Source: Jimgerdemannia flammicorona
Lineage: Eukaryota
Reading direction: 5' to 3'
Assembly (NCBI GenBank): GCA_003990765.1
Contig: RBNJ01000295.1
Coordinates: forward strand, 1-33,865
DNA length: 33,865 nucleotides
Numbering within the stretch: the first letter of the stretch is position 1; every line of letters begins with the position of its first letter. The translations under genes were made by a program, and so were the position numbers. The notes beneath the pieces were generated by a model, which was not told the DNA's origin, searched no databases, and saw only the letters and a program-made list of their open reading frames with translations. Shown one piece after another: positions 355 through 32,204 of this stretch.

Positions 355-1990
355 ATATCCAGACCTATTCCACCTCATCCAAGATCTCCAACACTATCCT
401 CAGGATATCCAAGTATCTCAAACTCTACTAACAATTCAGAAGGTGAATCAGAATCAGCATCAGAATCAGAATTAGAATCAGAATTAGTACTAGGATCAGA
501 ACCAGAACTAGAATCAGAAGACAGTAATGATGAAATAGCTACTCTATTGCAAACATTTGCAGGATATCCCGAAGAAGACCCAAGAGAATACCTTGATAGA
601 ATTAAAGGAATTACAGCTCTGAAGAATCTTTTTCCCAAAAGGAAAGTTGCCAACTATAAGATCTAACTCAGAGAACCAGCTAAAGGAATTTTCACCCAAG
701 CAAGAAATGATCCAAACTTAGACCTAGGAGTAGCCATCAATGCAGAACTAACTTGGCTAGCAGAGTATAAATCCATGATCCACTGGCTTATTAAAAAGAA
801 TATAGGAGATGAGACCTGCTATAAGGCTCAAGAATCTATCATGGAAATGAAGATGAACCTTAGAGAATTATCTAGAGCATTCTTTACAAGAATTCAAAAG
901 AGAATGTATGCTGCTGGGTTCAATGCTACCAACTAAGACATTCTAGGTCCAATGACCTTCATGAATAGAATTCCCCCAAACATTGCCCAGTATATCTGCA
1001 CCCTAGGTATCAGAAGATCTGAGGAACAAATAGATACAATTTAAGGATTTTTTAATATCAGATAAGGAACTACTCAGAGGGACCATTAAAAGAAGGATGA
1101 CAAATACAACATCCTGGTCAAAGCTCTACAAGGACTCCTCCAAGTACAAGAAAGATTTGAGGAAAGAAAGTCAGCCAAAGAATAGAAGAAGAATAGAAGT
1201 GAAGTTCAAGACTTTAGTTCCAAGTTAGACTGATAGGTTGGATAAATTGAAAAACTTACCATATGTGAAAATCAGAACTACCTACAAAATATCAGAGAGT
1301 ACATACTACAAAGGAACAAAGGTTATCCACTCAGAGATAATAGGAGCTATCAGTAAAAAGAAAGAAGATACCCTGTCAGGAACAAAGCCCAAGTCCAATA
1401 CTTCTACTGTGGACAATTCAGACACTATGCCACTGAATATGACAACAAAAGAAGTGACTGAAGGGACTCAGAATTACCAAACTGAAGAAATGAAACTCAG
1501 TATGAAGATTGAAGCCCACCCTGTTGAAGACCTTGAAGAAGAAAGCAATAGTGAAGACTATAGTGACCTGGACTTACACCCAGCCAGAGTCATTATCAGG
1601 AAGACAGTCTATCTAGCAGAGAAAAGAAAGAGACCAGTGGGAAGACCATCCAGGAATACCAGTAGAAGAATTCAAGAGAAAGGTGAAGAACATGAAGAGA
1701 AGCAAGTAGAAACACCTTCCCAGTTTCCCTTATCTTTTGTTTCCAAACCAAATGAGTTACTCTCAGAAGATGAAGAAATGGAGCAAGATGAACAGAAACC
1801 TGCTGCACCAAAGCCTAAGAAGTAGTACACTCTAAAGACAATACCCAGAGACATTTACAATAAAGCCTGGCAGAAAATCCAAGAAGCCAAGATAGAAGTT
1901 CCTCTTCTGCAGTTTCTGTAACTGATACTAGCTGGAGTCTGAAATAAGTTACTAAGAACCACCAGGTCTAGTACTGGCTGAGTCTCAATT
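355..1990 (+). pseudogene. gag of element A (disrupted)
   Basis: FAGYPEEDPREYLDRI (retrotransposon gag-type F.G...ED...) at ~556-603; decayed zinc knuckle VQYFYCGQFRHYATEY (from CX2CX4HX4C) at ~1392-1440; acidic GAATCA repeats at 445-520. Boundaries approximate. Confidence 0.75.
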
Positions 1991-2029
1991 CCACAACAAG
2001 AATTAGCTCCTACCCCTATTTAAGCTGTA

Positions 2030-2400
2030 GACAGATATGGCAGCACCTACTTACATGGCAATATTGGAGGACAAAAGGTGAAAATTCTTATAGATACAGG
2101 AGTAGCTGTCTGTGTCATTATTAAACAATTTCTAGATACCCTTCAATAGCCCATTGAAGGACCATCTAATCTCAGTATTATAGTAGCAGATAGAGCCCAA
2201 ACCCAACCCCTTGGAGAAGTATAAAACATCACTAACTCTCTTAGACACATTCAGTTTTCCATTCTAAAAGTTGTTGTTACAAAAGCTATTATCTATGATA
2301 TAATACTTAGTATCAACTGGATGAAGGAAATGAATGCAGTTGTTGATATTGATCAACAAGTACTCAAGTTTGACTACTGAGGCAAAAAGTATACAGTTAA
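2030..2400 (+). pseudogene. Retroviral-type aspartic protease of element A
   Basis: VKILIDTGVAVCVI at ~2078-2119 and YDIILSINWM (decayed YDIILGxDW) at ~2294-2323. Confidence 0.88.
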
Positions 2401-3699
2401 AGTTACTAGCTATAAGCAATTGAAGAAGAAGAAGGTCACCATCTAGAAAAAATATACCAATAGTGAAGAATCAACTATAGAAGAAGAAGAAGAATATGAA
2501 GATAAAAATAATTCCAGACTCAATCTATGAATCTATCTGGTAGATGATAGGCCAGAAGACAATGTGTGGGTCAGAAATATCATCCCTATCATAATTGGAA
2601 CTATTGCAGAACAGATCAAAGGATGTCCCACCTATCTCAAAAGACACAAGTGCCCTGAGCACTCCACAAAGATCATTGGGACATGGAATTCGCCTGGGAC
2701 AGCCTGCCTGAGTGCAGAAATAGTAAGAAGAAATACAGAAATGTTCCAAAGACACCTATAGCCGAAGCTACAGAAGTCCAAGCAATCTGGGGTCAAGAAT
2801 TATCTGAGGGAGAAGAAACCCCTGAACAGGAGGTTCCTAAACAGGAAATACCTAAAGAAGAAGAGATCCCTGAACTTATTCTCTGGGATGATCCTTACTA
2901 GATACCACCTGAAGATAATGACCCTTGGAATATTGAAGAAGGACCCAGTATAATCTCCATTGTCCTAAAGTAAGGAACATATTAGGAAAAAGCCTTTCAG
3001 CTAGAAAGATGTCTATATCAAATAGTCTTCCACTCTCCCCAAGACTACTGTTACCAGTGCTACCTACTGGATCTATAAGAAAGATAGAGACCCTGAAGGC
3101 CAGAACTCCCAACTATAATTGTACTATCAACTATCTTCCAAGAAGTCACTATAAGATCATAAAGTCAATTTAGAGGATAAGGTCTCTTTACCCAAACAGA
3201 AGTATATCCCTTGGCCACCCTTCCCCCAACCTATGACTAAGATAGATACCAATTCGTAAGACAACAGGAGATTAATAGCTGGGAACAGCATTTTTGAGTA
3301 ATGGAATATTGCAACCATAGATGACATCTAGACTGCTGAGACTACAGACACCAGAAGATTCACCTTAGCCAAGATCTAGTGGTCCATATACTAAAAAGAG
3401 GAGACAATAGAACTCAGAGTCAAAAAAGCCAGACCAAGAAATCAGGAAGAAGGATTTTCAAAATCTACAAATTGGGAGAAGATATCCTAGCTCCCATCAG
3501 ACATACAATTTGCTGAAGATGGGTAGAAGATGCCATCAATTTTATGGAAGCCCTATACCCCACAGGAAAAAGAGGAATCAACTAGCTCTGAGATCCCTCT
3601 ACTGTAGCCAGATTGCCACACCTTAACCTCAGAGCTTGGAGACTTTCTACCCATGGAGCTTCAGCCCAAAGATAGCCTAAACTTAGCAAAGATATTGCC

Positions 3700-4105
3700 C
3701 AGTATATCCTGCTATATCCTAAGGCCAAACACTAAACCAAAGCTCACCAGGAAGATGTAGGGTATGATCTCTACAGTCTGGAGGATGAATACATCAAGCC
3801 TGGAAGAACATTGGTATTCAGAACTGGACTAGCCATGCAGCCATCCAAAGAAACTTACATCCAACTGACCTCAAGGTCTGGACTTTCCAGACAAGAAGTA
3901 ACTGTAGAAGGAGGAATCATAGATTCAGGATATATAGGCGAAATCAAGATCATCCTACATAATAGTCATACAGAATGGCACTGAATTCTTAAAGGACAGA
4001 AGATTACTCAAGCAGTCTTCATGAAAGTCAAGACTCCTCAATTTAAAGAAGTCTCCAAACTGACTAAAGAAATAAGTCAAGCTGGAGATTTTGGAAGTTC
4101 AGATA
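3700..4105 (+). pseudogene. dUTPase domain of element A pol
   Basis: All five trimeric dUTPase motifs in order: DVGYDLY (I), SRSGLS (II), GGIIDSGYIGEI (III), ITQAVF (IV), QAGDFGSS (V); one internal stop and one frameshift. Confidence 0.92.
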
Positions 4106-4559
4106 AAAAGGAAGTACATCTCCTTCAGGTTAACCACAAGAAGAATGATCCCCAGTAAGTATATTACCAACTAGTCAAACTGCACAGAATCTCATCCTGG
4201 AGTCTAGAGAGCAAAATACCTTCGAAATCTTTGCCCCACCTGATTCCAGGAATCTCTTCTTTGAACATAATAAAGATTTCCCAAATCTGAATATTGAAGG
4301 ATACACATTCTCTGACAAAATGAATCCAGTACACTCCTGAGCAATCAACCAGAGCTGGGAAAGCATCATCTTGCCAAAAGAAACCATCATTGGACATTTG
4401 GTGCTTTTTCTCAACCAAATCCACAGAGAAGTCCATGAGCTTAACTTATCAGGAAATGGAAAAAGGTCTCAGAAGAAAGGAAAGACCTCTCTGCAACCTA
4501 GGAGACAGTGAAGCCTTCCACCAACATTGGAGAAGAATTGACACCTCAGAAATAGTAAC

Positions 4560-5905
4560 AGCTAGTAGAACTCCTCAAAAAATATCAAGATATCTTCACT
4601 ACTAATTATGGTAACCTACCATACAACCCATTATACCACTATAGTATAAATATAGCAAATGTAACACCCATCTGGCAGATATCCTAGAGAATACCCCATC
4701 ACCTGAAGACCTTCAAAAAGGAATATATTTAAGAACTCTTAGACAATGGAGTCATCAGACCATCTGCTAGCCCTTGCACCAGCCCTATACTTATTATACC
4801 AAAGAAAGGAGGATGAAGACTCTGTATAGACAACAAGAAACTCAATTTAGTTACAGAAAAGAGTATCTATCCTTTGCCCAGAATTGTTGATCTCTTAGAC
4901 AGTTACAAGATATCAGATACTTTAGCATTATGGACCTTTTTGCAGGATTCCACAAGATCTCTATAGACCCCAAGGTCATTCCAAAAACAGTCTTTCTTAC
5001 TCTAGGAAAACTGTTGGAATACCTCCAAATATCCTTTAAACTTTGCAATGAACCTCCCATCTTCCAGAGAATGATGAACTCAGTCTATAACCTATTGATC
5101 TACTACTGCCTGATTGTATACATAGGTGATTCTAATATCTATTCAAAAAATTTTGAGGAACTACCTAGAAGAATTCTTCAAGCTCACTCATAAGAACCAC
5201 CTAAGACCCAATGCTAAGAAATGCTATTTTGGAATACAGAAACTTGAATTCCTTAGATTCATAGTTTTGAAAAAAGAAATCCATATAGATTTAAAGAAAA
5301 CTGAGAAGATCAACAATTGGCCAGTACTCAAGACCCTGAAGGAAATACTATTATTTCTGATGGTAGTATTCTACTACAGAAGATTTATCAAGGACTTTGC
5401 CCAAATTACTGCTCTAATCTGAATTCTTCTCAAGAAAAGTGTTTCCTATAAATAGATAGAATTACAGAAAAAACATTCAAAGAACTTAAGCACTATATGA
5501 CTACAGTACTAATCCTTATTTGGCCCAATTTATAGAAGCCATTTATCTTATATACAGATGCCTCCAAAGATAGCCTTTGAGTAGTTCTAGCCTAAGAAGG
5601 ATCTGACCAATAGTACTATGTAATAGCTTATGCAAGCTAAGCATCCAATCAGCAGCAGATCAACTATGGCAGCACTAAATTGGAATTTCTTACAGTCATA
5701 TGGACAGTTATCTGGTTCAGGCATTATCTTATCAGAAAAAGATTTACTCTGATAACTGACTATATAGTTCTCAAATAGCTATTCAACTATAAGGAACCTA
5801 CTGGAATCTTGGTCTGCTGGATCCTCATCCTTCAAGATCATAAAATAACCATCATTCTCAAAGCAGAGAAAGCTCACAACAATGTTGATGTACTTTTCCA
5901 CCAAC
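4560..5905 (+). pseudogene. Reverse transcriptase + RNase H of element A
   Basis: DLFAGFHKI, SFKLCNEPPIFQRMM, IVYIGDSNIYS (decayed YIDD), KCYFG..LEFL, YYRRFIKDFAQI; RNase H FILYTDAS, NYGSTKLEFL, FRHYL, FTLITD, HNNVDVL. Confidence 0.93.
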
Positions 5906-5929
5906 TCCGATGAACCAGAAGAAGGGTGT

Positions 5930-6987
5930 ACTAAGGAACTACACCCTAAAGGAAACTCCTTTGACTATCAAAGTACAAGAAGATCTCATCCAAAAAGAAT
6001 ACCAGAAAGCCTGCCAAGGACAGATATATATATATAGAAGAAAAACTACGAATGATATACCACCATTGATCCAATCTCAGAACACAGGCCCAAGACATAC
6101 TCAAGAAATGTGATATCTGCCAAAAGTACAAAGGAAAGAAGAATTATCAAATATCATTACAACTAAACATACCATCAGACAACATCTTACAAAGATATAG
6201 AGTAGATATAATTGGATCTTTACCAGTTATACCAAGAAGGAACAAGTATATCTTTATATTTGTAAATCATCTAACCAAGTGGCCTAAAGCTTTCCTAATA
6301 GAAATCACAGTGCCTTGACTATTGTAGGCCTCCTCCTAGACTCATACTCAGATATAGACCTCCAGAAGAACTTATCTCTGACCAAGGCACCAAATTCATC
6401 AATAATATAATTATAAGTTATATCTTAATTCACAAGATCCAATACAAACAGACCACATCATACTACCCTCAATAGTGTAACAGAACAAATGAACCAGACC
6501 ATCAAGAAAGAACTTGTCTGAGTCAATTCTACTAACTGAGACCTCTGCTTACCTGAGATCCTATGGGAAATTCAGAACACCCCTACTGCCTCTATCAAAC
6601 AAAAGCCTTTCAAGATGATATTTGTAAAGAAAACCAGAACTACCTATTATAAAAACCTTGGAGATCTCCTCAAGAAGGCAGAATAGTTATATAATCAAGT
6701 CCAAGTTCAGATTATTAAGGCCCAAGAGAGACAAAAGAAGTATTATGATCAGAAGCAGAAGAATCAGAAGATTAAGATTGGAGATCAAGTACAAGTTTGG
6801 AGATATATGATTGCAACACACTTTGCAACCAAACTGAAACCTAAATGGGAAGGACCTTATCTTGAATATAATATCAGAGAACCCAGTATCTATTTAAGAA
6901 GTATAGATGGATGAACTCTAAGGATACCAGTATACATCAACTACCTCAAGATATATCTCTCTCCTTATTATGAACTATACAATTGAC
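5930..6987 (+). pseudogene. Integrase of element A
   Basis: CDICQK (HHCC zinc finger), VDIIGSLP..RRNKYIFIFVNHLTKWPKAF, PEELISDQGTKF, C-terminal KLKPKWEGPY (GPY/F motif); no chromodomain seen. Confidence 0.9.
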
Positions 6988-7076
6988 CAGTGTCTCCAGA
7001 CTCTTGTCCTAAGTTCATTTTAATTACTTCTAGTTCCTCTTGCACAATTCCACTAAGCCAATAGAAACCCCCTCTA

Positions 7077-7481
7077 ATGAATCCAGACCCATCAGGAGAA
7101 TCTCACCTTGGTCAGACATTTACTATAAGTCTATCAGCTATAGGTCTACTATGTAATTAGAGAAAGTTGCAGAACTTTCCAGCCCCAGACCTAATCTATA
7201 TTAGTAACTCCACTGATCTGACCTGGAAAAACACAACTGCTGCAGATAGATTGTATACAATCTACAAACAAAATACCCCAGACCTGATATAGGCATAGTT
7301 CTCTCTAAGTAATATATAACAAATGAATCTCATCATCTATCTGAGTATAATCAATTATGTTGAAATTCTGTTCTTAGAAGAAGAAGAAGAACCTGTTAAA
7401 TTGAGTGACTCTAATCCAAAAAAAGATAACTGTTCAGATATTGATACTGAAGATACTTATACTTATTGAGATAATGACTAA
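7077..7481 (+). pseudogene. Extra ORF3 of element A, ~135 codons, unknown function
   Basis: One frame from ATG 7077 (MNPDPSGESHLGQTF...) to TAA 7481, with an acidic C-terminus (LEEEEEEP..DIDTED). Internal stops are compatible with C>T/G>A decay of CAG/TGG/CAA/CGA codons. Confidence 0.55.
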
Positions 7482-7523
7482 AGGATAGTCCAAGGACAGA
7501 TCATCCTTTAGTAGGGGCTGATT

Positions 7524-8773
7524 TGATGAGTAGCAGAATTATACTGCTGAAATCATAAATTAGCTATATACTATATCTAGTGCTCTAAGCAACTAAGACT
7601 GCCTTACTGTACCAATCTGCATAATTATTCAGAGATATCAGAAACAGTATATTTATCTATATCAGTACAGTATACTATACTAAGTCAGTAATATATAAGT
7701 CCAGTATACTGTACTATTCAGATATACTTGTATTGATAGCAATCTATAATTAGTTATATAGTAACTAGTAGCAACCATAACTGTATAAAATACCCCAGAG
7801 ACAAGAGTGAATAAATGTCAGTTTGAAATTCAGAATACATTTTAACTCCAGTCTCCTTTCTGATATGAAGCTTTGGTTTGCTTGTCAGGTAAGCCTGAAG
7901 AATTTGAGTAAATCTGTGACTCAAGAAAGAGCTGCTATTTTCAAAAAGAAGTCCACCACCTTATCACAAAGCCAGTCTGTTGATATAACTTGCAGTAAGC
8001 TTGTTCATACAAATGAAGCCAGTCTTGATGTAACTTTGCCAAGAAGAAGAGAATCTGAGTTATTATTCAAGGAGTCTGCTGATTCAGAAGAATCCACATC
8101 ATTTACTATTTTCGAGTTATCTGCAATTCCCAGAGAGCCCACCTTAAGAAAACTTGCCACAAGCTAGTCTATCTGATACAACTTCAGAGTAGAGCCAGTT
8201 TCTCTCTGATGTAACTCCATGCAAATGAAGCAAGTCTTTGATATATCTTACCAGGAATCTACAATCCAAGCTATCTGAATTATCTGTGCCATCTAGATTA
8301 TTTCCCAGAAGAATCTGCCAATTCAGAAGAATCCACACCAAACTGAGTTATCCAAGTTATCAAGTTATCTGACATTTCCAGAGAAGCCTGCCAATTCAGG
8401 AGAATTCACACCAAACCAAGTCATCCAAATTATCTGCCAAATCTGCATAAGGAATACTGCCAAGTTCATTATGCCAAGGTCATCATACAGAAATCACATA
8501 CTCTTAGAGATCATCACCCAAGAAGAAAACTGCTAAATTGTCAGATTGTCTTATATAAGGAATTGTCACAAATACACACAAATCACTGCTATATCTAAGA
8601 ACCATTCCAATAAGAAAATCAACTATTGTATCTAGATTGACTATTATACCACTAAACACTAACAAGGAATCTGAGAACATTTTGTTGCTTTTAACAAAGT
8701 AACTGAGAGCTCAAGCAAAACTACACTAACTCCCAACCTTGTAAATTACCTCCATTGAGCCAGGTACATTACA
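7524..8773 (+). repeat. 3' LTR of element A (~1.25 kb)
   Basis: Starts TGATGAG after PPT AGTAGGGG; ends ...ATTACA at 8773; 3' part matches 1-354; TATAAAA at ~7784 and AATAAA at ~7809; internal repeats CTGCCAATTCAGAAGAATCCACACC at ~8075-8415. The 5' boundary is inferred from the PPT only. Confidence 0.8.
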
Positions 8774-8966
8774 CTAGAGTGAATAAACATCAGATCAAAA
8801 TAGTTCAAAGCAAAGAGAAATCAAGAGAACTAGTAAGCCTGCAGATAAATATACTTTGAACTTACCTACTCCTACATTCCAAGGACTCTACAGAGTTAAG
8901 GAAGATCAAGTTTTTAAGATATAGAAATCCAATATACTTTTACAGTTATACATTTACTATGTTATA
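8774..8966 (+). repeat. 3' part of the 5' LTR of element B, followed by a decayed PBS
   Basis: CTAGAGTGAATAAAC...TGTTATA aligns to 14944-15136 (...TATTACA). Followed by ACTTAGTGCCCATTGACTGG, probably TGGTGCCC... with G>A. Confidence 0.85.
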
Positions 8967-8995
8967 ACTTAGTGCCCATTGACTGGTGATTCAAG

Positions 8996-10390
8996 ATGAA
9001 TTCCTCACTTTTAAGCTAAACAATGAACAACTGCTACTGTCTAAACAACCATATAAACCAAACCAAGACATCTAGACAAGATAGATATAAGATCTCTAGT
9101 ATTCCTCAGATATACTTCAGATGAATCAAACATTATCTTCAATGATGATTTTGAGCAACATGCTGCTATAAGTACCCTGACAACAAGGCTGCAAGTAGCC
9201 CTCATACTCTTTAGTCTTTAAGGCCCAGCAAGAGCAGCATTCACAGCTATATCTCATGTAGGAAATGATGATGATGCTCTACTGACAGCACAGAAGATCT
9301 GGCTTAAAGCCACCTACTATATAGATGAGATCAAGTAAGTCCTGAAGGATCAGCTCAACACAACATATCAAGGAATGAATGAGGATCTAAATATATTCTA
9401 CACTAGAATTTGATATCAGATAATCCTCACAGATTATAATACTGCTATCTAAGACAAAGTAGTCAAGGCAATCTTCATAAAGAGAGTTTACCCTAAAATA
9501 GCCAGAGCCATCTATTCATCACCAGTAGTCCTGGATCTGGTACAGAAGGTTGCCTATGCTCAGCAATACTGGATAGCCAGACATCTATAAGACCATACAA
9601 TGGAAAGAGTCACTGGTATCAGAATTGAAAAGACAACTAGTATGATTCTCACTACAGTGATCAACCGAAATACCTCAGCCAAGAGCTACTGAGCAGCAAA
9701 GAAACAGTGACCCTTTGGAGGAACCAGCTAAGAAGTTTGCTAAAATGACCACCCACTTAGGAGATATGGTAAAGGAAATCAGTAAAAGAGTTCATTACCT
9801 AGTTCAGAAGTTTGCCATTACCTCAGACAAGAAGAGGTATCTGCTATACTTATAGAGAAGAAGGCCACTACTTATATGAATATATTAGTGAAACCAAGTA
9901 CAAGGCTCAACCAAGTAATACTATATAAAATAGAGAACAAGTCAACACTATCACTTTTGAAGAGAGTGGAGAATCTGATGAAGAAGAATAGGAGACATAC
10001 CCTGTACAGACCACTAAGGATGTTTATAAGAAACCCTACAAGAGACCACCAGGGAGACTCAAGAAGAACCTAGTGGAGAAACAGATGGAAACTGCAACAG
10101 AAAGCCAAGCTGAAGAAATGGATCAAGACATGGAACTCAAGCAAGTAGTTCAAGATATTATCTGAGAAACTACCTCAGTTCTAGCCAGTAAAGGAGAAAA
10201 GAAAAAGAAGCTTAACAAAACCAAGACCTCAAGTATAATATCTTCAAGGATCTTAGCTAATAAAAGGTCAATAGAACCTTTGGCCAGCTGATAGAAATTT
10301 CCACATTCAGACAGCAAATGAGATTTGGACTGACTGAAGCAACTAAAGAGCAAGGTTGGAAGATAACTGAGGCTAACAATATTCAAGAAG
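8996..10390 (+). pseudogene. gag of element B (disrupted)
   Basis: WLKATYY, YQGMNEDLNIFYTRI (Q..NE....F..R gag motif), decayed zinc knuckle GICYTYREEGHYLYEY at ~9836-9883. Boundaries approximate. Confidence 0.72.
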
Positions 10391-10409
10391 ACTCAGGAGA
10401 AGAAAGTGA

Positions 10410-10760
10410 AGATAATTGCAAGATCTGTCTATACAATCTGTCAAATTGAAGATAGAATCTTCGAGGCCATCATTAATACTAGAGCAGAAGGATGCCTTCT
10501 CAGCAAGAAAGCAGCAGACTGCCTAAGTTGGGAGGTTAAAGAAGCAACCAAGTTAGTATTTGTCACAGTAGATAGAATAAGAGCCACACCTCTTAGAAAG
10601 AGATGAGCTATCTCTATCAAGTTTGGAGGAGCAATCATCTCAGTAGATGTTATTGTAACCAATATAACCAACTATGACATTCTGATCAGCAACCAATGGC
10701 TTCATAAAGCCAGAGCAATAACCAATCTAAATTCCCAGAAGATATAAATTTTTATCAATA
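10410..10760 (+). pseudogene. Aspartic protease of element B
   Basis: EAIINTRAEGCLLS (IIDTGA changed by two G>A substitutions); YDILISNQWL. Confidence 0.85.
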
Positions 10761-11089
10761 TCAACAAAGTAGTACTCCCTGAAATAAAGAAAGAAGAGAG
10801 TGAGCAAGAAAAAGCCTATAAGAGAACTACTCAGAAAAAGAAGAAGAAAGTTGAATGGATTAGTGAAGAAGACTGTTGCAAGAAAATTATGGAAGAATAT
10901 ACACTATAAGTCTGCTCTCATAGAATTAAGATGTACTATATAGAGTATGTCAATGATTGCTATCAGTGTACTAGTGGAATCAAGAAGATCTACTATGAAA
11001 AAGACAGAATATCTTGGAGAAACAAGTAAGAGAAGAGAAGGAGGAGAAAGATAATAACTAATTACCAGCTTTTCTGAAAGATAGTAATG

Positions 11090-11495
11090 ATAAAGAGGAG
11101 ATCCAGGTCAAAATTTAGAAATCTACATGAGTCAGAAAATATAGCAGGAATGGATATCACTATTGTAGAAGAAACTATACTTAAGGGCCAGACAACTACC
11201 CTACTTGTAATAGGTCTGGAGATGACAATTCTAAAAGACAATATCAAAATCCTCAAGACAAGAAGTAGTCTGGCCAAAAGTGAGATTACCATCAAAGGAG
11301 GAATCATTGATTTATAATATATTAAAGAAATACTACTTATTGCTAGAAACCACAACTCTATAATTTCATTTCCAATTAAGAAGAAGGACTGACTGGTACA
11401 GATGTTAATCTTCTCAGTCCCATGGTCAAAGATCATAGAAGACAAGAAGTTGGAGGAAACAAAGAGAGGAAGGAAAGAATTTGGATCTACAGAAA
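11090..11495 (+). pseudogene. dUTPase domain of element B pol
   Basis: Motifs AGMDI (I), TRSSLA (II), GGIIDL*YIKEI (III), D*LVQMLI (IV), RGRKEFGST (V), all in one frame with stops. Confidence 0.9.
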
Positions 11496-11559
11496 GAAGA
11501 AAATTTACTAGTACTAATATTACCAAGCTGGATCACAAGAAGGAAACTACAAACAAGTA

Positions 11560-17233: not shown

Positions 17234-17429
17234 TCTGTGCAAAAAAATATTTTGCTATGGTTTTCGAACTATCTTAGAGCTCTCAAAATTACACCCAGAT
17301 ATGCCAATTTTTCTGTTCTAGTTTTTGTACAATCCTACCCAGATAAAATGCAGATGCTTCATACATATATGTATATTTTACAATTACAGATATTACAATT
17401 GTATGAAATAATTGCCATAAAGAATACAA

Positions 17430-17690
17430 CAGATGATAGACTGCAGACGAGAACTGCAGGATGTAAAATGATTCAAACACAAGACAGTAATAGACTGCAA
17501 AATGATGATAATGGACTGAAAAATGATAATAAACTGCAAGACAAAGATATTGCAAGATTATGGAGTGTAAGATAACAGACAGCAAGATGATGGACAGTTA
17601 GATAATAGACAGCAAGATGATGAATAGACAGTGAGATGACAGATGGCAGATGGCAAGATGACAGACAGTAAGATGACAGATAGCATAATG
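17430..17690 (+). repeat. Degenerate ~15-18 bp tandem array (GATGAYAGACAGCAA)
   Basis: Repeated GATGATAGACTGCA / GATGACAGACAGTAA units. Confidence 0.75.
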
Positions 17691-17777
17691 TAGAATATAA
17701 AATTATTAAATTATATATTAAAACTATAATTCAGTAACTGAATATCAAATGGAATGAAAATGAAATCTTACTTGAAT

Positions 17778-19520: not shown

Positions 19521-19546
19521 CTGCAACATAATTCAGACGTTTGACA

Positions 19547-19980
19547 ATGCCCCCCTACTCGACTCGAAACCTCCGCTACCTGCGCCTGTCGAAAAACCAA
19601 GCCATCCAGCTCCTGCTCAACCTCAAACAGGAGCATCTGGAATGGTTCAACGACCGTATCTTCCAGCACATTCTCGCGGCCCTGCAGCCCCTCCTGTGCA
19701 ACGCGCTTGTCAGAGATAGGGACGCGAAGGAGAGTTCCAAGGTCGCTCAGGTGTTTCGCGGCCGTAGGAATTGTTCTTGTCCGTCGGCTCGTTTGGTTCT
19801 CCGCCACCACCGTTGCGGGACGCGCTCACCCAGTCGTTTATCATTCATACAATAGCTGATTTTCAGTTTGCATATTATCTCAAGCCGACAGACAATCAGC
19901 ACCACATATTAGTGAAGGTGAAAATTATTGATTGCCAACGACGCACAATACCTCTTTACCGTTTGAGAATGAATATTTAT

Positions 19981-20015
<35 letters not shown>

Positions 20016-20445
20016 CCTCTGATGTAAATACAACGTTCGGAGCTTCACCTCTCGTCCTACTTACTCACCTTCCATACGATCATCTTACAACTAGAACAAA
20101 AACTACATATTTCCCGAAAAACCCACCACCGCCTCTGCCGCCGGTCCCTCCAAACCCTCCAAATCCGGCAAGCCAACCTCGGACGATGATTACTTCGACG
20201 ACGACCTGAATGAAGCCGAGGAGCCCGAGGAGAAGCCGACCTTGCATGTTACCTACTCGGGCTTCACCATCCACCCCAAAACCCTGATGGTCGTAGCCGA
20301 GCCATACGACCCGAGCAGGCCGTCGCGTGCACCCCAGTACCACGGGTTTGAGTACGAGGGAAACGAGGATGAGGTGGTGGGTGAGGAAAGGGCGGTGGAT
20401 GCGGGTGTTGGGTCGAGTCGTAGGGATGCAGATACGGGAGGGTGA
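19547..20445 (+). CDS. Conserved fungal hypothetical protein, 209 aa, 3 exons (19547-19763, 19856-19917, 20095-20445); possibly SLX4IP-like
   Basis: Phase-compatible GT-AG introns give MPPYSTRNLRYLRLSKNQAIQLLLNLKQEHLEWFNDRIFQHILAALQP..FRGPDFQFAYYLKPTDNQHHILVKNK..EEKPTLHVTYSGFTIHPKTLMVVAEPY; GC/CpG-rich with no internal stops. Confidence 0.85.
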
Positions 20446-20764
20446 TGCTGAAGTCGGGTGTGGGTATGTAGGGCATTGTTGATCAAAACGATGGCGTGTC
20501 TACTGTTGCAACTGTTACCTTTTTTGATTGGGAGTTCTTTTGCTTGGGCTTCCGTCGCTACTCTCAAGGATGGCGGTCAGTGCCTAGCGGCTATGTAGTG
20601 TGAGGGACTAGATATACGATACATTTTTAAACAATTTGAGAAAGGATAGATACGAGAGCGCGATTTTAATGATATATCGCAATGCCTAGGTAGCTATTGA
20701 CGAGTGGGGAGGGGGATCCGAGGGGCATTGGCTGAGGGATTGTGGGTACATATGTTGTATTATC

Positions 20765-21052
20765 TATAGACTGAGTGGTAATAAATGGAAGTCCAAGTGA
20801 CTATTAAAAAAAATAAAATAAAATAAAATAGGTAGCTATTGACCATAGGGCCACATATTTCTGAGCTCCTAACAGAATCCCTGAGGATCCCCGATGCCTG
20901 AAGCCGTTGTCCTGAGGCGTTCTGCGAATCCGGCAAGAAGAGCATCGGTTACGGATATGGAGCTAGAATGCACTTGCGGGATAGCCTATCCCTGATCTGG
21001 CGTTTTGGGGTTCAGTTCTTATTAAGGCTTGTTCCGGTATTTCGCATCATCT

Positions 21053-21096
<44 letters not shown>

Positions 21097-21131
21097 GTCT
21101 CTTGGACTGCCCTTTATTACCGAAGTCTATA
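20765..21131. mobile_element. MITE with ~45 bp terminal inverted repeats
   Basis: Left TATAGACTGAGTGGTAATAAATGGAAGTCCAAGTGACTATTAAAAAA vs reverse complement of the right end TATAGACTTCGGTAATAAAGGGCAGTCCAAGAGACTATAAAAAA; TA at both ends; A-tract and T-tract immediately inside. Confidence 0.8.
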
Positions 21132-21717
21132 ATGTATACAGTACAATGTCACCCCTATTCTCATCCAACACCCTGGGGGCCCAAACCCTCCCTCTCATCC
21201 TCCCCCTGCCTGAGCACTACCTAATTACCCACTACCTGAACCCTCCCACCACTCTTCTGGGTGATACGCTGCACCAGACCCCTGCGGTACCCCCCACCCA
21301 TCCCCCAACCCGCCACCAACTATTCAAAATATCCAACATCAACCATTCCCACCTAGCCATCTTGTCACCAACCCTGACCCGGTGCCCTCCCTCAAATACT
21401 ACATCATCTTCCTCTCGTCGACTGCAGTTCCGCACACATTTATTTCATGTTTGTTTTCCTTTCCCCTCGTGGAGGATCCAAACGGAAGGACCATCTCGAA
21501 GCATATTCCATTCCACTACCTTGTCTCCGTCAGTCCTGATCTGGCCTCGAGCCCTGGCTTGTAGCAAATCATTGTAGCTGTAATGTTCTGATGGAAGGGG
21601 ATTGTGGGAGAAAATTAATATGTAACTAATAATAAATAAAGAGAGCACTAAATTATTCAGAAGAATAAAAAAAATACTAATATAAAATTTGAGATATCTA
21701 GAACTGAAAGATATAAA

Positions 21718-21949
21718 TAGTACTTTCAAATAAATTGAATTGAATTGATTCCAATCAAATTGAATTGAGATCTAATTTGATTAAAGATTGAGAGTCAAAC
21801 TTTGAAATACAGTAACTTGACTAAAAATATATCTATATTTGATGATCTTTATTATGTTAGATTCATCTAGATAAGATAAATTTAATAAGTTAAAATTTTA
21901 AATTAAATTAAATTGAAGTTTAATTTAATTTAATTTAATCTAAATACTA
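21718..21949. mobile_element. Second, internally deleted copy of the MITE family at 15778-16048
   Basis: TAGTACTT-(GAATT)n start, shared core AAATACAGTAACTTGACTAAAAATATATCTATATTTGA...TTAGATTC, and (AATTT)n...TACTA end. Confidence 0.65.
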
Positions 21950-23103
21950 AATATAAACTTAAATAAATATTTATAAATAATAAGTAAAAAGATATATTGA
22001 ACTATTAATCTTTATAATTTTATTTATTATATTTCTCTTTTACTTAATATAATAATAAATATATTTAATAATAATATATAAACTTTAATTAAATAAAAGA
22101 AAAAAATTAAATATAAAATTAAATATAGAGATATTTACTTTTTTTATTTTTATTTTTTTTTTATTTTTTTTTTATTTTTTTAATGAACTCAAAGTTTTGC
22201 AGATTTTTATTGAAAGAAAACCTAGACTATATAGATCAAAACTCTCTCTCACTCTTCTCTAAGTACTATACCCTTATTAACCTAGACTAGCTATTATTTA
22301 GTAGCTCAACTATATTAGATACAGTTAGGCATTACTGCTTATATCTCATTCTATATACTATACTCTTTCTATTATTAGAGAGAAAGTAATCATATATTAA
22401 TAACTGAAGGCATATATCTGAAATTTCAATATATATATATATAAGATTATACTCAAGTCAATTTACATAGCCCCTACTATCCTAAGTAAAGTGATAGATA
22501 AAGAAAACCCTCTCTCAAAGTATAAAATAGTAGATAGAATCTAGTTCTTTCCAATGAGGTGAGTAGAGAACTTACATATAAGATAGGAAGAGATCTCTAA
22601 TATTCTACTACTCATATCTATAGATCTCAATTATATTGCTATATTAACTCTCAGTTCTAGTTAAGTATAGCTAAGATGTCTGATCTGGATAGTCTTAAGT
22701 CTCTCAATAATTCTCAAGTAATATTATAATATACTGAGAGTAGTCAAAAATGAAACCTATTATTTAACTATCTCACACTAATCAGAAGATCTTACTAATA
22801 TAGTATCTACCTTAGCCCCAATAACTATTACCAGTTTAACATCTAACTAGTTCACTATAATTATTCTTCTATCTATCTATAATAGCTATCTTCTCTCTTA
22901 TTTTTAAGAAATAGTTATCTATATTAGAACTGTACTTACTAAAAAGCTCACCAAAGCTCAGAGAGCTCTATTATAGATACTGAGAACCTATAGATAATCT
23001 ATACTGACACTTGATATCCAAGGTCAGCTAACTCTCTATATAATCCATAATATACTAAAATAATATCTTATTAATAATAATAAAAGAAAGAAGATATAGT
23101 ATA

Positions 23104-24640
23104 CTATACTTATATTTAATCTTTTTACTACTCCTTTTTAATCTATTTAATAAAAATAAAAAATAAAAAAAATCAGAAATTAATATAATATTCTATCAAG
23201 TTTAATAAAATGAAGAGCTTTTTTAATTATTATATATAATATTTTAATAAAAATAGTTTTTTATTATTTTATAATAAATATTAAAACCAGTCATAATTTT
23301 GGTCTTAAATTAAAGCCAAATCATAAATTACTGATTATAATTTCAAAGTCAATAGAATATTAAATAAGATCAAAATTATAATTAACTTTAGTAAATTATT
23401 TATAATTATATTATTTAAAAAAAAAGACTCTTCATTTAAGTAAAGTAGATAATATTTACTATTTATATTTCTAATAATATTTTTTTTTTTTAATATAATC
23501 AATATAAAAGAGAAGAGATTTAAAAAATATAAAGATTTATATTAAATAAGTAAAAAAAAATAATCTTTATTAAAATATTTTATACAATAATAAAAAAAAA
23601 AACTCTTCATTTCATTAAACTTAATAAAATTTTCTATCAATTTCTGGTTTTTATTTTTATTTTATTAAATATATTAAAAAGAAGTAGCAAAAAGAAGTAA
23701 TAAAAAATTAAACATAAGTTTAGATATAATTATTAATTTATAACTTAGTGATTTTAGTATTATTCTGTAGTTAGTAAATTGGCTGAATTCTCTTTCAAGT
23801 GACCTTAACTCGATTACTAAAAGTAATCTTGAATCATATTCACCTTTGTCAAATTTCCCTTTAAGTAGTCTTAAATTGGATTCTTAAGATAGATTGATCC
23901 ACTTCTACTTTCTTTTACTTCCATTTGATCTATCTTGAGAAAGTAGAAAAAGAAGGTAGATTAGATAGAAGTGGATTAGATAGAAGTAGAGAAAGATGGA
24001 TCAGGTGAAATAGCTCCCCTTTGCCATCAATTATCAAAATTATTCTCCTTTGCTGAATTTCTCAAATTCTCCTTAAAGTGGCCTTAAATTAATTACTAAA
24101 AGTAGCCTTAAATTGTATTCTCAAGTAGAAGTGAAAAAGAACCTCAATTTTACTTGATCTACTCAATTGTATTCCTAAGATAAATCAATCCACCTCTATT
24201 TTCTCTCACTCCATCTCAAGAAAGTGGGGAGAGGTGGATCAGATGAAAGTGAATTGGGTAGAAGTGAGTTGGGTAGAAGTAAGTTAGGTAGAAGTAGATT
24301 GGATAGAAGTAGATCAGGTAGAAGTGGGTCAGGTGAAAGTAGGGGAAGGTGGATCAGATAGAATGACTCTCCTTTGTCTCAATTACTAAAATTATTCTCC
24401 TTTGCTGAATTCTCCAAATTTCCTTTAAATCAATTACTAAAAGTGGTCTTAAATCATATTCATCTTTGTCAAATTCCTCTTTAAGTAGTCTTAAATTGAT
24501 TATCAAAAGTAGTCTTAAATCATATTTATCTTTATCAAATTCTCCTTTAAGTAGTCTTAAATTAATTATTAAAAGTAGCCTTAAATCATATTTATCTTTA
24601 TCAAATTTCTCTTCAAGTGGTCTTAAATTGATTATTTACT
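23104..24640 (+). repeat. Left TIR (~1.5 kb)
   Basis: Reverse complement of ~28190-29677 (e.g. TCTTAAATTAAAGCCAAATCATAAATTA); contains ~63-bp and 15-bp (GGGTAGAAGTGAGTT) sub-repeats. Inner boundary approximate. Confidence 0.85.
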
Positions 24641-24785
24641 TCTACTTAATCTATATATCTCTACTTTCTTCTACTTTCACTCAATCTACTTTCATCTTCT
24701 TGATCTCTATTTATTGAATATATTTGATAAGATAGTATTATTTATATAATATATCTGGTAGCTAATTCTGTCTTGGCTAAATAAT

Positions 24786-26790
24786 CTAAGAGATACATCA
24801 ATGTGGATGATATTTTTTAATATCATTTTCTATATCTACTAATATAAGTCCTTTTTGATATATATTTATATATTTTTGTAAATAATATATATATTTTCTA
24901 ATTATAATAAGATCAATAGAGACTAAAGCTTTTGAAATATTTTACTTCAATCTAGTTCATATATAATTGCAATGAGTTCTAAATATTAATATTATTACTA
25001 AATTATAATTATAATTTAATAATATATATATTATATATCTATAATATTTTTTTACACTATTTCAAAAATATTTAATATAATTAAGTTTATAATAAAACTT
25101 AGAATAAAAAATATATTTATACCCTAAGTTTTCAATAACTTCTTGAAGAAGTGACTTCTGTACTTTAAAATCTTCTTAATAAGATAGAATTTGTATAATA
25201 CAATAATCTTCTTTTTTGCATTTTTTTTTACATTTTCTTTTTAAATCTTTTCTCTAAAGATTTCTTTCTTTAAGTACTTATTATAAGTTCTTTGTTTTAC
25301 TATACAGTTTAACAATTTTATATTTCTTTAGAAATATCATTTCTTGAGTAATATTGTTAAACTTTGTCATACTGTTTTCCACTAGATCCAAGATTTATCT
25401 TATAAGCAAATAAAGTATCTGATATATACATTGAATATTCTTAACTATGATCAAATACAAATACTGTCACATAGTTAGGATGAATAGTATTGAAAATTGA
25501 AATAGCATTTTTTTGAATCTAATTATATAATATTAATTTATATTATAAGTTTTTTTATTAATATATTATTAAATTAAATTATTATTATAAATATATATAT
25601 ATTTGATCTATTAGATAATTTTCAGTCTAATAACCTTTCTTAGCTTTTCTAATTTCAAGTAGACAATAAGCTTCTCTTAGAGGCTTTAGATTTTTCATAT
25701 CTTTATATTATTCTTTAGATATAGCCAACCTTCTAACAATATTCAGAAGAAAGTCACTAACTATTATACTAGTACCTCTACTTTTTTTTCTAAGTAAAAA
25801 TTGTCCTTTAGATCCCTATCTATAGTTTAGATCATTATTAGAATTAAAAGTAGTCTCATCATGTATTACTAGAATATATTATTGTCCAAGAAAAAAGTAT
25901 GTTATATATAATGATTGAAAATCTTCATCATATTGAACCATAAATAGTTTCTAGTCAGCTATCTGCTTTAAAAATTATTTATGAGATACTTTAACATTAT
26001 CTCTTTAATGACTATTAATATAAAGTCCTTTTCTGTGCCTACTATAAGTATAGCCCATCTTTAGCATCTATTTTTTTGCTGTATCTTTATGAATTTGTAT
26101 AGATTCTACTAATATTGAAAGAATCTCTTTTTCTAAATATTTTTTGAGAGACTTTGGAGTAGCAGTAAACTTATTATTTTCTAAATAAGTTTTAACTATA
26201 AGTTTAATATTTTTATCTTTAAGAAGACTTTTCTTCTTAGTATGTTTTCTTTGTTGAGAAATAGAAAGAGTTCTATTGTTAATCCAATTTTGTATTCATC
26301 TTCTTAAAAGCTTTACATAGTATAAGCCTTTATTGATATTTTCTACAATTAGATGACTAGCTTAAGAAGCACTCCTATTATTATTTCTAAATACCATATA
26401 TTGTAATATATGTATATATTTTAAAATAAAATTTAAAAATAGATTTCCTAAATTCTTCATATGAGTATCAAGTATAATAATATGAGATTTTCAACTATTA
26501 TTAGCTTTTTTATCTTTATCTTTATTATCTTCATTCTCATTATCTTTATCTTTATCATTATTATTTTCATTTTCTTCTCTTTCATTATCTTCTTCCTTAC
26601 TATTTTCATCTCCTTCCTCTTCTTCTTCTCTCTTATCATCATCATCTATATTATAATTATAATTATAATTATAATTAATATATTATAAAATCAATAATAT
26701 TTATATAATAATATTTATCTATAATATTTTCTTCAAGTTTACTTTTTTGTAAACTTTGTAAGTACTGAGTTTGTTTAAATAGTTTTGGTA
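24786..26790 (-). pseudogene. DDE transposase, intron-containing, heavily mutated
   Basis: Acidic N-terminus, then TAKK*MLKMGY..RKGLYINSH*RDNV, LVIHDETTF (D1, ~25846-25863), LRKKSRGTSIIVSDFL, IHPNYVTVFVFDHS (D2), SGKQ, VLKERNL, KCKKKCKKEDYC, FYSKFYYKLNYIKYF* (decayed YPKFHCELNxIExxW, E), RTHCNY, KKYHPH*CIS. Start position uncertain. Confidence 0.9.
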
Positions 26791-26839
26791 TTTTGTTATA
26801 ATTAAAAAAAAAAATATAAATTTAATAATTTAGTAAGAT

Positions 26840-27190
26840 CATCTAAAAAGATAATATGAGATGGATAATAGAAGATAGACAATAGGAGACAAGACAAGTA
26901 ATAGGAGATAAGATAGAAAATAGGTGATAATACAATAAGTAATAAGAGATAAGATAGAATAAGATAGACATAACCATTATCTATCTTGTTTCTTATTACC
27001 TATCTCATCTCCCATATCTGTCTTATCTTCTATCATCTATCTCATCTTCTATTATTCATCTCATCTCCTATCACCCATCTCTTATTGCTTATCTTATCTT
27101 CTATTACCTGTCTTGTCTTCTATTACTCATCTTGTCTTGTCTCCTATCATCCATTATATTTTCCATTATCTATCTCATCACTTATCTCAG
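26840..27190. repeat. Palindromic minisatellite: purine-rich ~19-bp units followed by inverted pyrimidine-rich copies
   Basis: AATAGGAGACAAGACAAGT-type units up to ~26970, then CTTGTCTTGTCTCCTATC-type units. Confidence 0.75.
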
Positions 27191-27317
27191 AAAAAAAAAT
27201 ATATATTATATATCTTGATTTTGTAAGATATCAAAGAAAGATTATTAATAATATTGACAGATAAATGATCTTATAGCTGAGTTAGAAATAAAATGTAGAT
27301 GTCATACTTGAATTATC

Positions 27318-28122
27318 TGGGTTTGAAGTACAGTTTGAAGTACAGTTTGAAGTGCAGTTTGAAGTGTAGTTTAAAGTGTAGTTTGAAGTATAGCTGTAGT
27401 TTGAAGTATAGTTTGAAGTGCAGTTTAAAGTATAGCTTGAAGTATGGCTTTAAGTAAGGCTTGAAGTGATAGCTTAAAGTATATAGCTTGAAGGAGAATT
27501 TGGCCACTTTTGGTAATTAATTTGGCAATGGTGAATACAATTTAAGGCTACTTTAGTAATTGATTTAAGGTTACTTAAAGAAATTTAGAAAAGATGAATA
27601 TGATTTAAGGCCATTTTTGATAATTGATTTAAGGCTACTTGAGGCAAAGGTGAATATGATTTAAGATTACTTTTGGTAATTGATTTAAGACTACTTGAAG
27701 GGTACTTCAAACTATACTTCAAACTATACTTTTCAAACTACACTTCAAACTATACTTCAAACTATACTTCAAACCACACTTCAAACCACACTTTAAACTA
27801 TACTTCTAAACTATACTTCAAACTATACTTCAAACTATACTTTCAAAACTATACTTATATAATTTTGACTCCTCTTTATCATTAATTACTAAAATTGTTC
27901 CCCTTTGCTAAATTTACAAAGGTGAAGAGAAATTTGGCAAAGGTGAACATGATTTAAGATCACTTTTGGTAATTAATTTAAGACTACTTAAAGGGTACTT
28001 CAAACTGTACTTCAAACTACACTTTTTAAATATACTTCAAACTATATTTCAAACTATACTTTAAACTATACTTTAAACTATACTTCAAACTATACTTCAA
28101 ACTGCACTTTCAAAACTATACT
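27318..28122. repeat. 12-bp tandem arrays in opposite orientation: (GTTTGAAGTATA)n at 27320-27490; (CTTCAAACTATA)n at 27704-27855 and 27998-28122
   Basis: Directly visible; interleaved with extra copies of the TIR sub-repeat. They explain the FKLY/NYTS pseudo-ORFs. Confidence 0.88.
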
Positions 28123-28189
28123 TACATATACAATTTTAACTCCTCTTTGCCATTAATTATTAAAATTGTTCTCCTTTGCCAAATTTGCA

Positions 28190-29677
28190 AAGACAAATAC
28201 AATTTAAGATCACTTTTAGTAATCAATTTAAGGCTACTTAAAGGGGAATTTGACAAAGATGATTTAAGGCCACTTTTGATAATTGATTTAAGGCCACTTG
28301 AAGGAGAATTTAGCAAAAGTGAATATAATTTAAGGCTACTTTTAGTAATCGATTTAAGGCCACTTAAAGGGGAATTTGACAAAAGTGAATATAATTTAAA
28401 GCCACTTGAAGGAGAATTTGGAGAATTTAGCAAAGGGAAATAATTCCACCTGATCCATCTTTCTGACTCACTTCCACTTAACTTACTTTCACCTGATCTA
28501 TCTTCCTAACCTACTTCTACCTAACTCCCACCTGATTCATCTTCTCCCACTTCCTTGAGATAGAGTGGGAGAAGGTAGAGGTAGATCAAGTAGAAGTAAG
28601 AGAAGATAGAGATAGATTGAGTAGATTAAGTAGAAGTGAGTAGATCAGGTCCACCTTCTTTACTTCTACTTAATCCATCTTAGAAATATGATTTAAGGCC
28701 ACTTTTGGTAATTGATTTAAGACCACTTGAAGGAAAATTTGGAGAATTTGATAAAGGGGAATAATTTTGATAATTAATGGTAAAGGGAAGCTATTCTACT
28801 TAATCTACCTTCTCCTACTTCCATCTGACCCACTTTTATCTGATCTATCTTTTTCTTCACTTTTTCAAGATAAATTAAGTAGAAGTGGAAGAAGATGGAG
28901 ATAGATTGATCTATCTTGGAAATATAATTTAAGGCTACTTTTGGTAATTAATTTAAGACTACTTAAAGAAAAATTTAATAAAGGTAAATACAATTTAAGG
29001 CCACTTTTGATAATTGATTTAAGGCCACTTAAAGGAGAATTCAGCTAATTCATTAGTTATAGAATAATGCCAAAATTACTAAGTTATAAATTAATAATTA
29101 TATCTAAACTTATGCTTAATTTTTTGTTACTCTTTTTTATTACTTCTTTTTAATATATTTAATAAAATAAAAATAAAAACTAAAAATTGATAGAAAATTC
29201 TATTGAGTTTAATAAAATGAAGAATTTATTATTATTATTATTATATAAAATATTTTAATAAAGATTATTTTTTTACTTATTTAATATAGATCTTTATATT
29301 TTTAAATCTCTTCTTCTTTATATTAATTATATTAAAAAAATATATTATTAGAAATATGAATAGTAAATATTATCTACTTTACTTAAATAAAGAGCTTTTT
29401 TTTAAAAAAATAATATGATTATAATATTTTACTAAAGTTAGTTATAATTTTAACCTTATTTAATATTCTATTAGGTTTGAAATTATAACTAATAATTTAT
29501 GATTTGGCTTTAATTTAAGACTGAAATTGTGACTGGTCTTAATATTTATAAAAAAAACTATTTTTATTAAAATATTATATGTAGTAATTAAAAAAGCTCA
29601 ATTTTTGATTTTTGATTTTTGATTTTTTTTTTAAATAAATTAAAAAGAAATAGCAAAAAGGTTGAATATAAGTACAG
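28190..29677 (-). repeat. Right TIR (~1.5 kb)
   Basis: Reverse complement of 23104-~24640. Inner boundary approximate. Confidence 0.85.

Positions 29678-32140: not shown

Positions 32141-32204
<64 letters not shown>

Follow-up and report, generated by a model that had tools for sequence, protein, structure and literature searches.

In a 33.9-kb window deposited as Jimgerdemannia flammicorona DNA (contig RBNJ01000295.1, positions 1 to 33,865, the whole stretch that was analysed), the transposon-derived sequences have undergone a C-to-T change that extends beyond CpG. Within these repeats, cytosines decay in the order CpG > CpA = CpC >> CpT, and the decay ends at sharp borders with two gene islands. 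We attribute the pattern to methylation-linked C>T decay within a transposon domain, a reading to which we assign a probability of about 0.6. The initial annotation of the window had described a hypermutation resembling repeat-induced point mutation (RIP), with loss of CpG together with CpA>TpA changes. Both kinds of loss are present; however, CpC is hit as strongly as CpA and CpT is largely spared, so the spectrum departs from the "classic" CpA signature of RIP that had been invoked.

The window was divided by composition into repeat blocks and the two gene islands (Table 1). The repeats referred to below are two degenerate Ty3/Gypsy elements with dUTPase domains, arranged in tandem and termed A and B, with their long terminal repeats (LTRs), and an inverted-repeat element of 6.6 kb (23100–29681) with arms of 1.5 kb and sub-repeats of 66 and 12 nucleotides (nt).

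Context and direction of cytosine loss in the repeats

The repeat DNA (358–19530 and 21501–30440) contains 27 CpG dinucleotides against about 672 expected, whereas the two gene islands contain 304 against about 338. Much of the island DNA is non-coding, and it has a GC content of 0.49–0.51 and normal CpG. The borders of CpG loss are sharp and lie at 357, 19538, 21548 and 30448. At the first island, CpG is dense from 19538 on and the preceding one is found at 19367; the borders near 19535 and ~30440 proposed in the initial annotation are thus real. Its statement that repeats of all classes lack CpG holds for the two Ty3/Gypsy elements, but the 5' LTR of element A keeps 19 CpG (18 expected), the block at 16901–19530 keeps 14, and the inverted-repeat element belongs to no assigned class. 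The CpG-free domain begins exactly at the junction between the 5' LTR and the interior of element A. This LTR may form the edge of the domain, may have been kept unmethylated, or may be a younger LTR gained by recombination. It also contains a 112-codon arginine-rich open frame (2–337) that extends past the start of the window.

In the block at 16901–19530, four fifths of the CpG are gone, yet CpA/TpG is raised (observed/expected, o/e, 1.36) and there is little further decay; CpG was therefore lost even where CpA is still intact. Depletion of CpG accompanied by gained TpG/CpA, both confined to sharply bordered transposon domains, is what would be expected of methylation-driven decay.

Changes that arose since duplication were counted in three non-coding repeat pairs, namely the inverted arms, the LTRs of A and the LTRs of B, each aligned both with a transition-tolerant aligner and with MAFFT. 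The arms (1405 aligned bases) differ by 204 transitions in either alignment, with 20 transversions in the former and 29 in the latter, and two CpG-related mismatches remain in them. The LTRs of A (289–293 aligned bases) show 41 transitions and 19 transversions with the transition-tolerant aligner and 43 and 32 with MAFFT, and those of B (209–212 aligned bases) 27 and 11 or 28 and 14, respectively. The excess of transitions beyond CpG that had been suspected earlier is thus evident from the pair counts, and also from the comparison with an intact relative described below.

When the three pairs were pooled, C/T mismatches made up 9/9 of the sites with C in both copies or C opposite T at CpG, 100/171 at CpA, 51/88 at CpC and 48/215 at CpT. 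Counted by trinucleotide, the mismatch was 82/140 at NCA, 38/60 at NCC and 33/169 at NCT (CA and CC against CT, Fisher p = 1.6e-15). The 5' base has no effect at NCA sites, of which 54–75% are mismatched whichever base precedes the cytosine. Aligned TG/CA pairs number seven in the arms and one in the LTRs of B. This is not the preference of Neurospora-type RIP, in which CpA stands above all other contexts and CpG is not favoured; the non-CpG rank corresponds instead to what is known of one methyltransferase, the Dim2 enzyme of a single species, which prefers CA, then CC, and hardly touches CT. In the 12-nt arrays of the inverted-repeat element, 27 units were found and 20 were usable (12 nt long). 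Five columns vary among these units, each by transition; the former CG has become TG in 5 units, CA in 2 and TA in 13, and 39 of 40 CpT cytosines persist.

The composition of the blocks follows the same order. As GC falls from 0.46–0.51 to 0.15, the CpT share of the remaining cytosines rises stepwise, from 0.21–0.24 in the genes and the 5' LTR of A, through 0.41 in the 3' LTR of A, 0.44–0.48 in the interiors of A and B and 0.52–0.61 in the AT-rich blocks, to 0.70 in the block with a GC content of 0.15 (29682–30440). Within the inverted-repeat element, the interior, a sequence unique in cis, has decayed as far as the arms (GC 0.230 versus 0.229 and 0.242). Of 66 one-kb windows, 15 have a positive composite RIP index, and both Gypsy elements score negative; screens based on indices or k-mers may miss such decay for this reason.

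The direction of change is from C to T. If the CpG-keeping 5' LTR of element A is taken to stand for the ancestor, the 3' LTR shows 33 C>T/G>A changes against 8 in reverse (binomial p = 1e-4). For the interior of the element, a phmmer search with its dUTPase fragment returned mainly cellular dUTPases, with P0142 as the sole close transposon relative; P0142 led to protein P0271 and then to metagenome contig L001, whereas a search with the reverse transcriptase (RT) fragment of A against longer proteins yielded 38 candidates, none of them significant. Nine further loci (L002–L010), matching at 37–49%, were left out of the comparison. The L001 contig (4101 nt, GC 0.457, CpG o/e 0.36, TpA o/e 0.50, frames mostly open) aligns with element A at 3185–7151 of the window, at 72.9% DNA identity over 3952 bases. 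Relative to L001, element A has 498 C>T/G>A changes, against 184 transitions in reverse and 389 transversions, a comparison that also holds much ordinary divergence and lost coding constraint. The forward and reverse counts are 184 versus 19 for CA>TA, 122 versus 55 for CC>TC and 130 versus 80 for CT>TT, so the net flux ranks CpA > CpC > CpT. Among the stops in A, those replacing Gln (3) and Trp (1) of the intact protein P0271 agree with the Trp/Gln>stop changes of the initial annotation; the residue most commonly replaced is Arg (4), and Tyr and Pro are replaced once each (Pro is not one base change away from a stop). L001 is a near-intact relative of element A that is already CpG-poor despite its GC content, and its coding capacity is spread over several overlapping frames (3–848, 852–1379, 1310–2791, 2770–3852 and 3699–4100).

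The changes are not arranged in strand tracts. A clustering of C>T by strand, for which a test had been proposed, was absent in six runs tests (both copies of the three pairs), and three copy-identity runs tests gave no clustering by copy; the chance of so few runs exceeded 0.2 in each. Many superimposed rounds of RIP could have blurred strand tracts. The twin LTRs of A, identical at insertion, have also changed unequally: the 33 and 8 changes given above separate a copy with 19 CpG from one with none.

Elements, gene islands and the host

The domains listed in Table 1 come from a Pfam search of stop-to-stop open reading frames (ORFs) of at least 45 amino acids (n = 266). Remnants of protease, dUTPase, RT and RNase H are present in both A and B, as judged from Pfam hits and motif reading. 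Several individual changes named in the initial annotation were recovered at the sequence level. The protease motif reads IDTG in A and INTR in B (ATT AAT ACT AGA); tyrosine stands at an expected cysteine in both zinc knuckles; the 5' LTR of B ends in TTATA where its 3' LTR ends in TTACA; the altered primer-binding site TAGTGCCCA follows the 5' LTR of B; and the peptide YYKLNYIK is encoded on the minus strand at 25094. The hAT-like motif reading of the inverted-repeat element, on the other hand, was left unconfirmed, with no transposase family recognised among 61 ORFs of at least 22 amino acids from 24600–27350, and the class of this element stays unassigned; a target-site duplication was sought at its ends and none was readable.

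Table 1. Features of the 33.9-kb window with their strand, basis or composition, and CpG counts (the range counted is given in brackets where it differs from the feature)
Feature	Position	Strand	Basis or composition	CpG observed/expected
5' LTR of Ty3/Gypsy element A	1–357	+	extends past window start; aligns with 8475–8776 at 73–79% identity; GC 0.459	19/18
Element A interior, degenerate	358–8474	+	zinc knuckle at nt 1399, protease IDTG at nt 2090 (motifs)	9/278
Element A domains	dUTPase 3736–4155; RT 4891–5190; RNase H 5641–5775	+	Pfam	
3' LTR of element A	8475–8776	+	pairs with 1–357; GC 0.338	0/8
5' LTR of Ty3/Gypsy element B	8774–8978	+	82% identical to 14944–15148; terminus TTATA	4/185 (8777–15148)
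Element B interior, degenerate	8979–14943	+	zinc knuckle at nt 9842, protease INTR at nt 10472 (motifs)	
Element B domains	dUTPase 11078–11314; RNase H 12634–12810	+	Pfam	
3' LTR of element B	14944–15148	+	terminus TTACA	
AT-rich CpG-free relic, repeat class unassigned	15149–16900	.	GC 0.235; 56% of remaining cytosines in CpT	0/24
Block with the CpG layer of decay only	16901–19530	.	composite RIP index -0.80	14/75
Gene island 1, control	19531–21548	.	GC 0.485 over 19531–21500	100/115 (19531–21500)
AT-rich CpG-free block	21549–23099	.	GC 0.239; composite RIP index +0.21	2/23 (21501–23099)
Left arm of long inverted repeat, 66-nt sub-repeats	23100–24634	+	pairs with reverse complement of 28220–29681	2/89 (23100–29681)
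Interior of inverted-repeat element	24635–28219	.	GC 0.230; 12-nt arrays at 27321–27483, 27703–27856 and 27996–28123	
Right arm of long inverted repeat	28220–29681	-	83–84% identity to left arm over 1405 aligned bases	
Most decayed block	29682–30447	.	over 29682–30440: GC 0.150, CpA/TpG o/e 0.49, composite RIP index +0.69	0/4 (29682–30440)
Gene island 2, control	30448–33865	+	RPS19 exon matches at 30994–31170, 31638–31817 and 32027–32101; N-terminus of a UBC-type E2 at 33584–33865	204/223 (30441–33865)

Several further features were observed in the blocks and islands. Part of the AT-rich relic (15788–15960) is similar to 21729–21909 (72.5%). The block at 16901–19530 includes tandem repeats of 24 and 18 nt at 19022–19254, within a 173-codon open frame (18998–19519) that encodes VDLNDAD-like units and adjoins the gene-island border at 19531; the tandem units differ mainly as CG/TG/CA/TA variants. 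Another ORF of this block, at 17033–17572, matched no Pfam family and had no Atlas match. In gene island 2, a 59-nt tandem repeat in four copies (31167–31391), with CpG kept, opens the first intron of RPS19. The exon-1 donor site lies within the first copy, and the same GT-containing donor-like motif starts three copies, so the intron carries repeated donor look-alikes. A run of 61 T at 32143–32203 lies directly 3' of RPS19, and two T-rich tracts of ~40 nt in gene island 1 (19976–20015 and 21053–21093) match it at 95–100%.

The best named matches of the RPS19 exon belong to Calcarisporiella, Bifiguratus, Glomeromycotina, Umbelopsis and Mortierellomycotina (73–83% over the aligned part), with Pezizomycotina among the matches at 55–71%. 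Taken per exon, exons 1 and 2 are 81–88% identical to those of Calcarisporiella or Bifiguratus, against 55–69% for Pezizomycotina, and no basidiomycete appears among the named rows of the best 120 matches listed. In a tree of 39 RPS19 sequences, the protein falls outside the supported Ascomycota clade (96/91) with a metagenome protein as its sister, and its placement among early-diverging fungi is without resolution. On the evidence of this one short protein, the host lies outside Ascomycota and appears nearest to Mucoromycota, in agreement with the earlier view that it is not a member of Pezizomycotina. The literature also agrees with the accompanying claim that the lineage is not one with established canonical RIP. 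One study states that neither Gigaspora nor Mucoromycotina gave RIP signatures (PMC8647823), and in a kingdom-wide k-mer screen, RIP-like signatures enriched in repeats were confined to classes of Ascomycota (PMC12543289). In the table of that screen, "Jimflamm" has 23 enriched k-mers for non-coding DNA and "EndFLAS" has 13; both have 0 for repeats and the label "no_rip". A further paper that mentions both Jimgerdemannia and RIP names RIP as one of the genome defences of fungi and makes no tie to Endogonales (PMC7928374).

Proposed methylation-linked decay and its alternatives

In the reading that we favour, the transposon blocks would form a chromatin domain with methylated cytosines, with the gene islands outside it. 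A maintenance-type enzyme would keep CpG fully methylated, and a DIM-2-type enzyme would methylate CpA and CpC, with CpT hardly touched. The 5-methylcytosine (5mC) would then turn into thymine by deamination, either spontaneous or assisted by the methyltransferase. If CpG is fully methylated, CpA and CpC partly and CpT hardly, deamination would remove CpG first and completely and CpA and CpC more slowly, and the remaining cytosines would increasingly be those of CpT. Such a process would act on both strands, site by site and over a long time, and it would follow the domain and not the pairing of homologous copies. The sequence itself shows the spectrum of change with its context rank and direction, its confinement to repeats, the abrupt borders and the absence of strand tracts; from these we infer the presence of methylation, the enzymes acting and their timing.

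Reports on other fungi provide candidates for these enzymes. In Zymoseptoria, methylation by Dim2 falls on CG and CA, then on CC, with hardly any 5mC at CT, and the enzyme drives a mitotic change of CA to TA (PMC8016269). One survey reports RID-1 from Pezizomycotina alone, and DIM-2-like homologs from Endogonales and Glomeromycota (PMC9963178); according to another paper, those clades of Mucoromycota that are sister to arbuscular mycorrhizal fungi have lost RID (PMC8298701). Because the repeat pairs show no clustering by strand or copy, the twin LTRs of A are unequally changed, the context rank matches that of the Zymoseptoria enzyme, and DIM-2-like genes but no RID are reported for Endogonales, methylation-linked decay is the reading we favour. 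The initial annotation had offered either a distinct repeat-targeted defence or heavy non-CpG methylation. The latter appears to fit better, given that of two testable hallmarks of RIP, clustering by strand or copy is not seen and equal change in twin LTRs seems to be missing (33 versus 8 here); the two are nevertheless options that sequence by itself cannot separate.

Several points weigh against methylation-linked decay. The DIM-2 of Neurospora is said to prefer CpT (PMC13297926, PMC8016269), so "DIM-2-type" denotes here the preference found in Zymoseptoria and not a rule for the whole family. Raw non-CpG fractions in the comparison with L001 barely differ (CpA 0.30, CpC 0.24, CpT 0.24; chi-square p = 0.039), so that the sparing of CpT shows clearly in the repeat pairs, the composition and the net flux alone. 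The transition/transversion ratio is 7–10 in the 1.5-kb inverted arms against 1.3–2.5 in the LTR pairs of 200–300 nt, at a similar transition divergence (~13–15%); simple clock-like decay predicts no such gap, whereas a burst acting on long, closely spaced repeats would, although alignment noise in the indel-rich LTRs and small counts may be a partial cause. Finally, this reading does not account for the escape of the 5' LTR of A.

The ratio gap is among the observations that point to a RIP-like defence, that is, a homology-triggered mutator, premeiotic or mitotic, in which a DIM-2-like or other C5-methyltransferase-like enzyme acts without RID, in bursts, on duplicated DNA and its surroundings. 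Such a mutator would also account for C:G>T:A transitions that dominate in repeats, spare single-copy genes and depend on the 3' neighbour, for the strongly one-sided CA>TA flux of 184 versus 19, and for the oldest blocks passing the composite RIP index (15/66). It has precedents in Neurospora, where DIM-2 alone can mediate RIP and mutate flanks and linkers (bioRxiv 10.1101/2021.04.05.438447), and in the RIP-index signals suggested outside Dikarya for Zoophthora (PMC10515909). Bursts of this kind are hard to reconcile, however, with the absence of strand tracts and of copy clustering in three pairs, with twin LTRs of which one retains every CpG, or with a cis-unique interior that has decayed like the arms around it, and the decay reaches a GC content of 0.15, far below any similarity usable for pairing. 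The early and complete loss of CpG is unlike RIP in Neurospora, RID is reported absent outside Pezizomycotina (PMC9963178), and the k-mer screen lists both J. flammicorona and a related Endogone as "no_rip" (PMC12543289). We therefore consider a RIP-like defence unlikely, though worth retaining. Its specific form, in which Endogonales-type fungi would possess a RID-independent DIM-2-type mutator that converts C to T in repeats at CpG, then at CpA and CpC, with CpT spared, is proposed just as tentatively.

Two further sources of C-to-T change are much less likely. Deamination of 5mC at CpG alone, together with a neutral drift of dead sequence toward AT and no dedicated process at non-CpG sites, would explain why CpG is lost first and most strongly, why the composite RIP indices of the Gypsy elements are negative and why raw non-CpG contexts differ so little relative to L001; once coding sequence is dead, relaxed selection against TpA would even yield some of the CA>TA flux by itself. 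It is nonetheless improbable, since non-coding arms with two CpG left show 7–10 transitions per transversion, the rates at CpA/CpC and CpT differ ~2.6-fold, and the 12-nt arrays vary solely by transitions, whereas the 59-nt repeat of the RPS19 intron, which keeps its CpG, has 3 transition columns against 4 others (a very small sample). The GC content of 0.49–0.51 and the normal CpG of non-coding DNA in the gene islands likewise indicate that the genome in general does not drift toward GC 0.15–0.24. Editing of retrotransposon cDNA or genomic DNA by an AID/APOBEC-like cytidine deaminase shares with the data a dominance of C>T that is limited to mobile elements, and we regard it as the least plausible source. 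The differences between LTRs and between arms postdate integration, both strands are affected about equally (arms 63/43 and 50/48), and the inverted-repeat element, which shows neither LTRs nor a reverse-transcriptase signature, is affected in like manner. Known AID/APOBEC-like deaminases read the 5' side of the cytosine, whereas here the rate is set by the 3' base and not by the 5' base (the 54–75% at NCA).

Relation to known systems and significance

Among known systems, the closest likeness is found in Zymoseptoria tritici, where 5mC lies on transposons and Dim2 causes C>T change in repeats that raises TpA, with an equal context rank and no need for strand tracts. In that experiment, however, methylated CG was not highly mutated, but in our window CpG disappears first, and completely; the species is also an ascomycete that carries rid, and the methylation and enzyme known from it are predictions in our case (PMC8016269). 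RIP in Neurospora and other Pezizomycotina, which runs through RID and DIM-2 pathways, shares the repeat-confined C:G>T:A change that spares nearby genes, the prominence of CpA>TpA and the AT-rich end product (PMC12543289; bioRxiv 10.1101/2021.04.05.438447). It differs from the present case in that here CpG goes first, CpC equals CpA, CpT is spared, strand tracts are absent, twin LTRs are unequal, and the host lies outside Ascomycota in a lineage from which RID is reported absent (PMC9963178).

CpG-centred decay is known from other fungi. Rhizophagus irregularis (PMC8647823) and Basidiomycota with DNMT1 and DNMT5 (PMC7862722), whose transposons carry CG methylation, also show CpG depletion in transposons, a gain of TpG/CpA and a contrast with genes; decay of CpG alone, however, would leave the 204 arm transitions and the loss of CpA and CpC down to a GC content of 0.15 unaccounted for. 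In Pucciniomycotina, a RIP-like, CpG-centred hypermutation outside Ascomycota is specific to TpCpG, while the decay described here removes CpG altogether and also occurs at CpA and CpC (PMC3318451). A RIP-like composition has been suggested outside Dikarya for Zoophthora radicans and other Entomophthorales as well, based on an index only and with the authors' caveats (PMC10515909); the present counts are aligned, polarised and resolved by context, with the index positive in only part of the window.

Our literature search, which the Endogonaceae genome paper (doi 10.1111/nph.15613) lay outside, found no description of this pattern in Endogonales and, judging by the titles listed, no study devoted to DNA methylation in that order. 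As far as searched, both a methyltransferase-linked C>T decay in this lineage and its spectrum are without a printed description. In the transposons of this window, from a fungus that resembles Mucoromycota, C-to-T hypermutation depends on context and reaches beyond CpG, whereas published screens confine RIP-like mutagenesis to Ascomycota.

If the decay is driven by methylation, it would imply heavy non-CpG 5mC, with a preference like that of Zymoseptoria Dim2, in a group usually described as dominated by N6-methyladenine (6mA) (PMC13297926), and it would mean that index and k-mer screens can miss decay of this type. If an active mutator is responsible instead, the origin of RIP-like defence would move below Dikarya. 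For a mutator independent of RID, repeat-targeted C-to-T mutagenesis would predate Dikarya, and RIP would have arisen by specialisation from methyltransferase-driven decay, with the high transition/transversion ratio of the inverted repeat as a homology-boosted component. In either case, the pattern offers a direct target for methylome work in Endogonales and contributes to understanding how transposons stay dead in a genome so rich in repeats.

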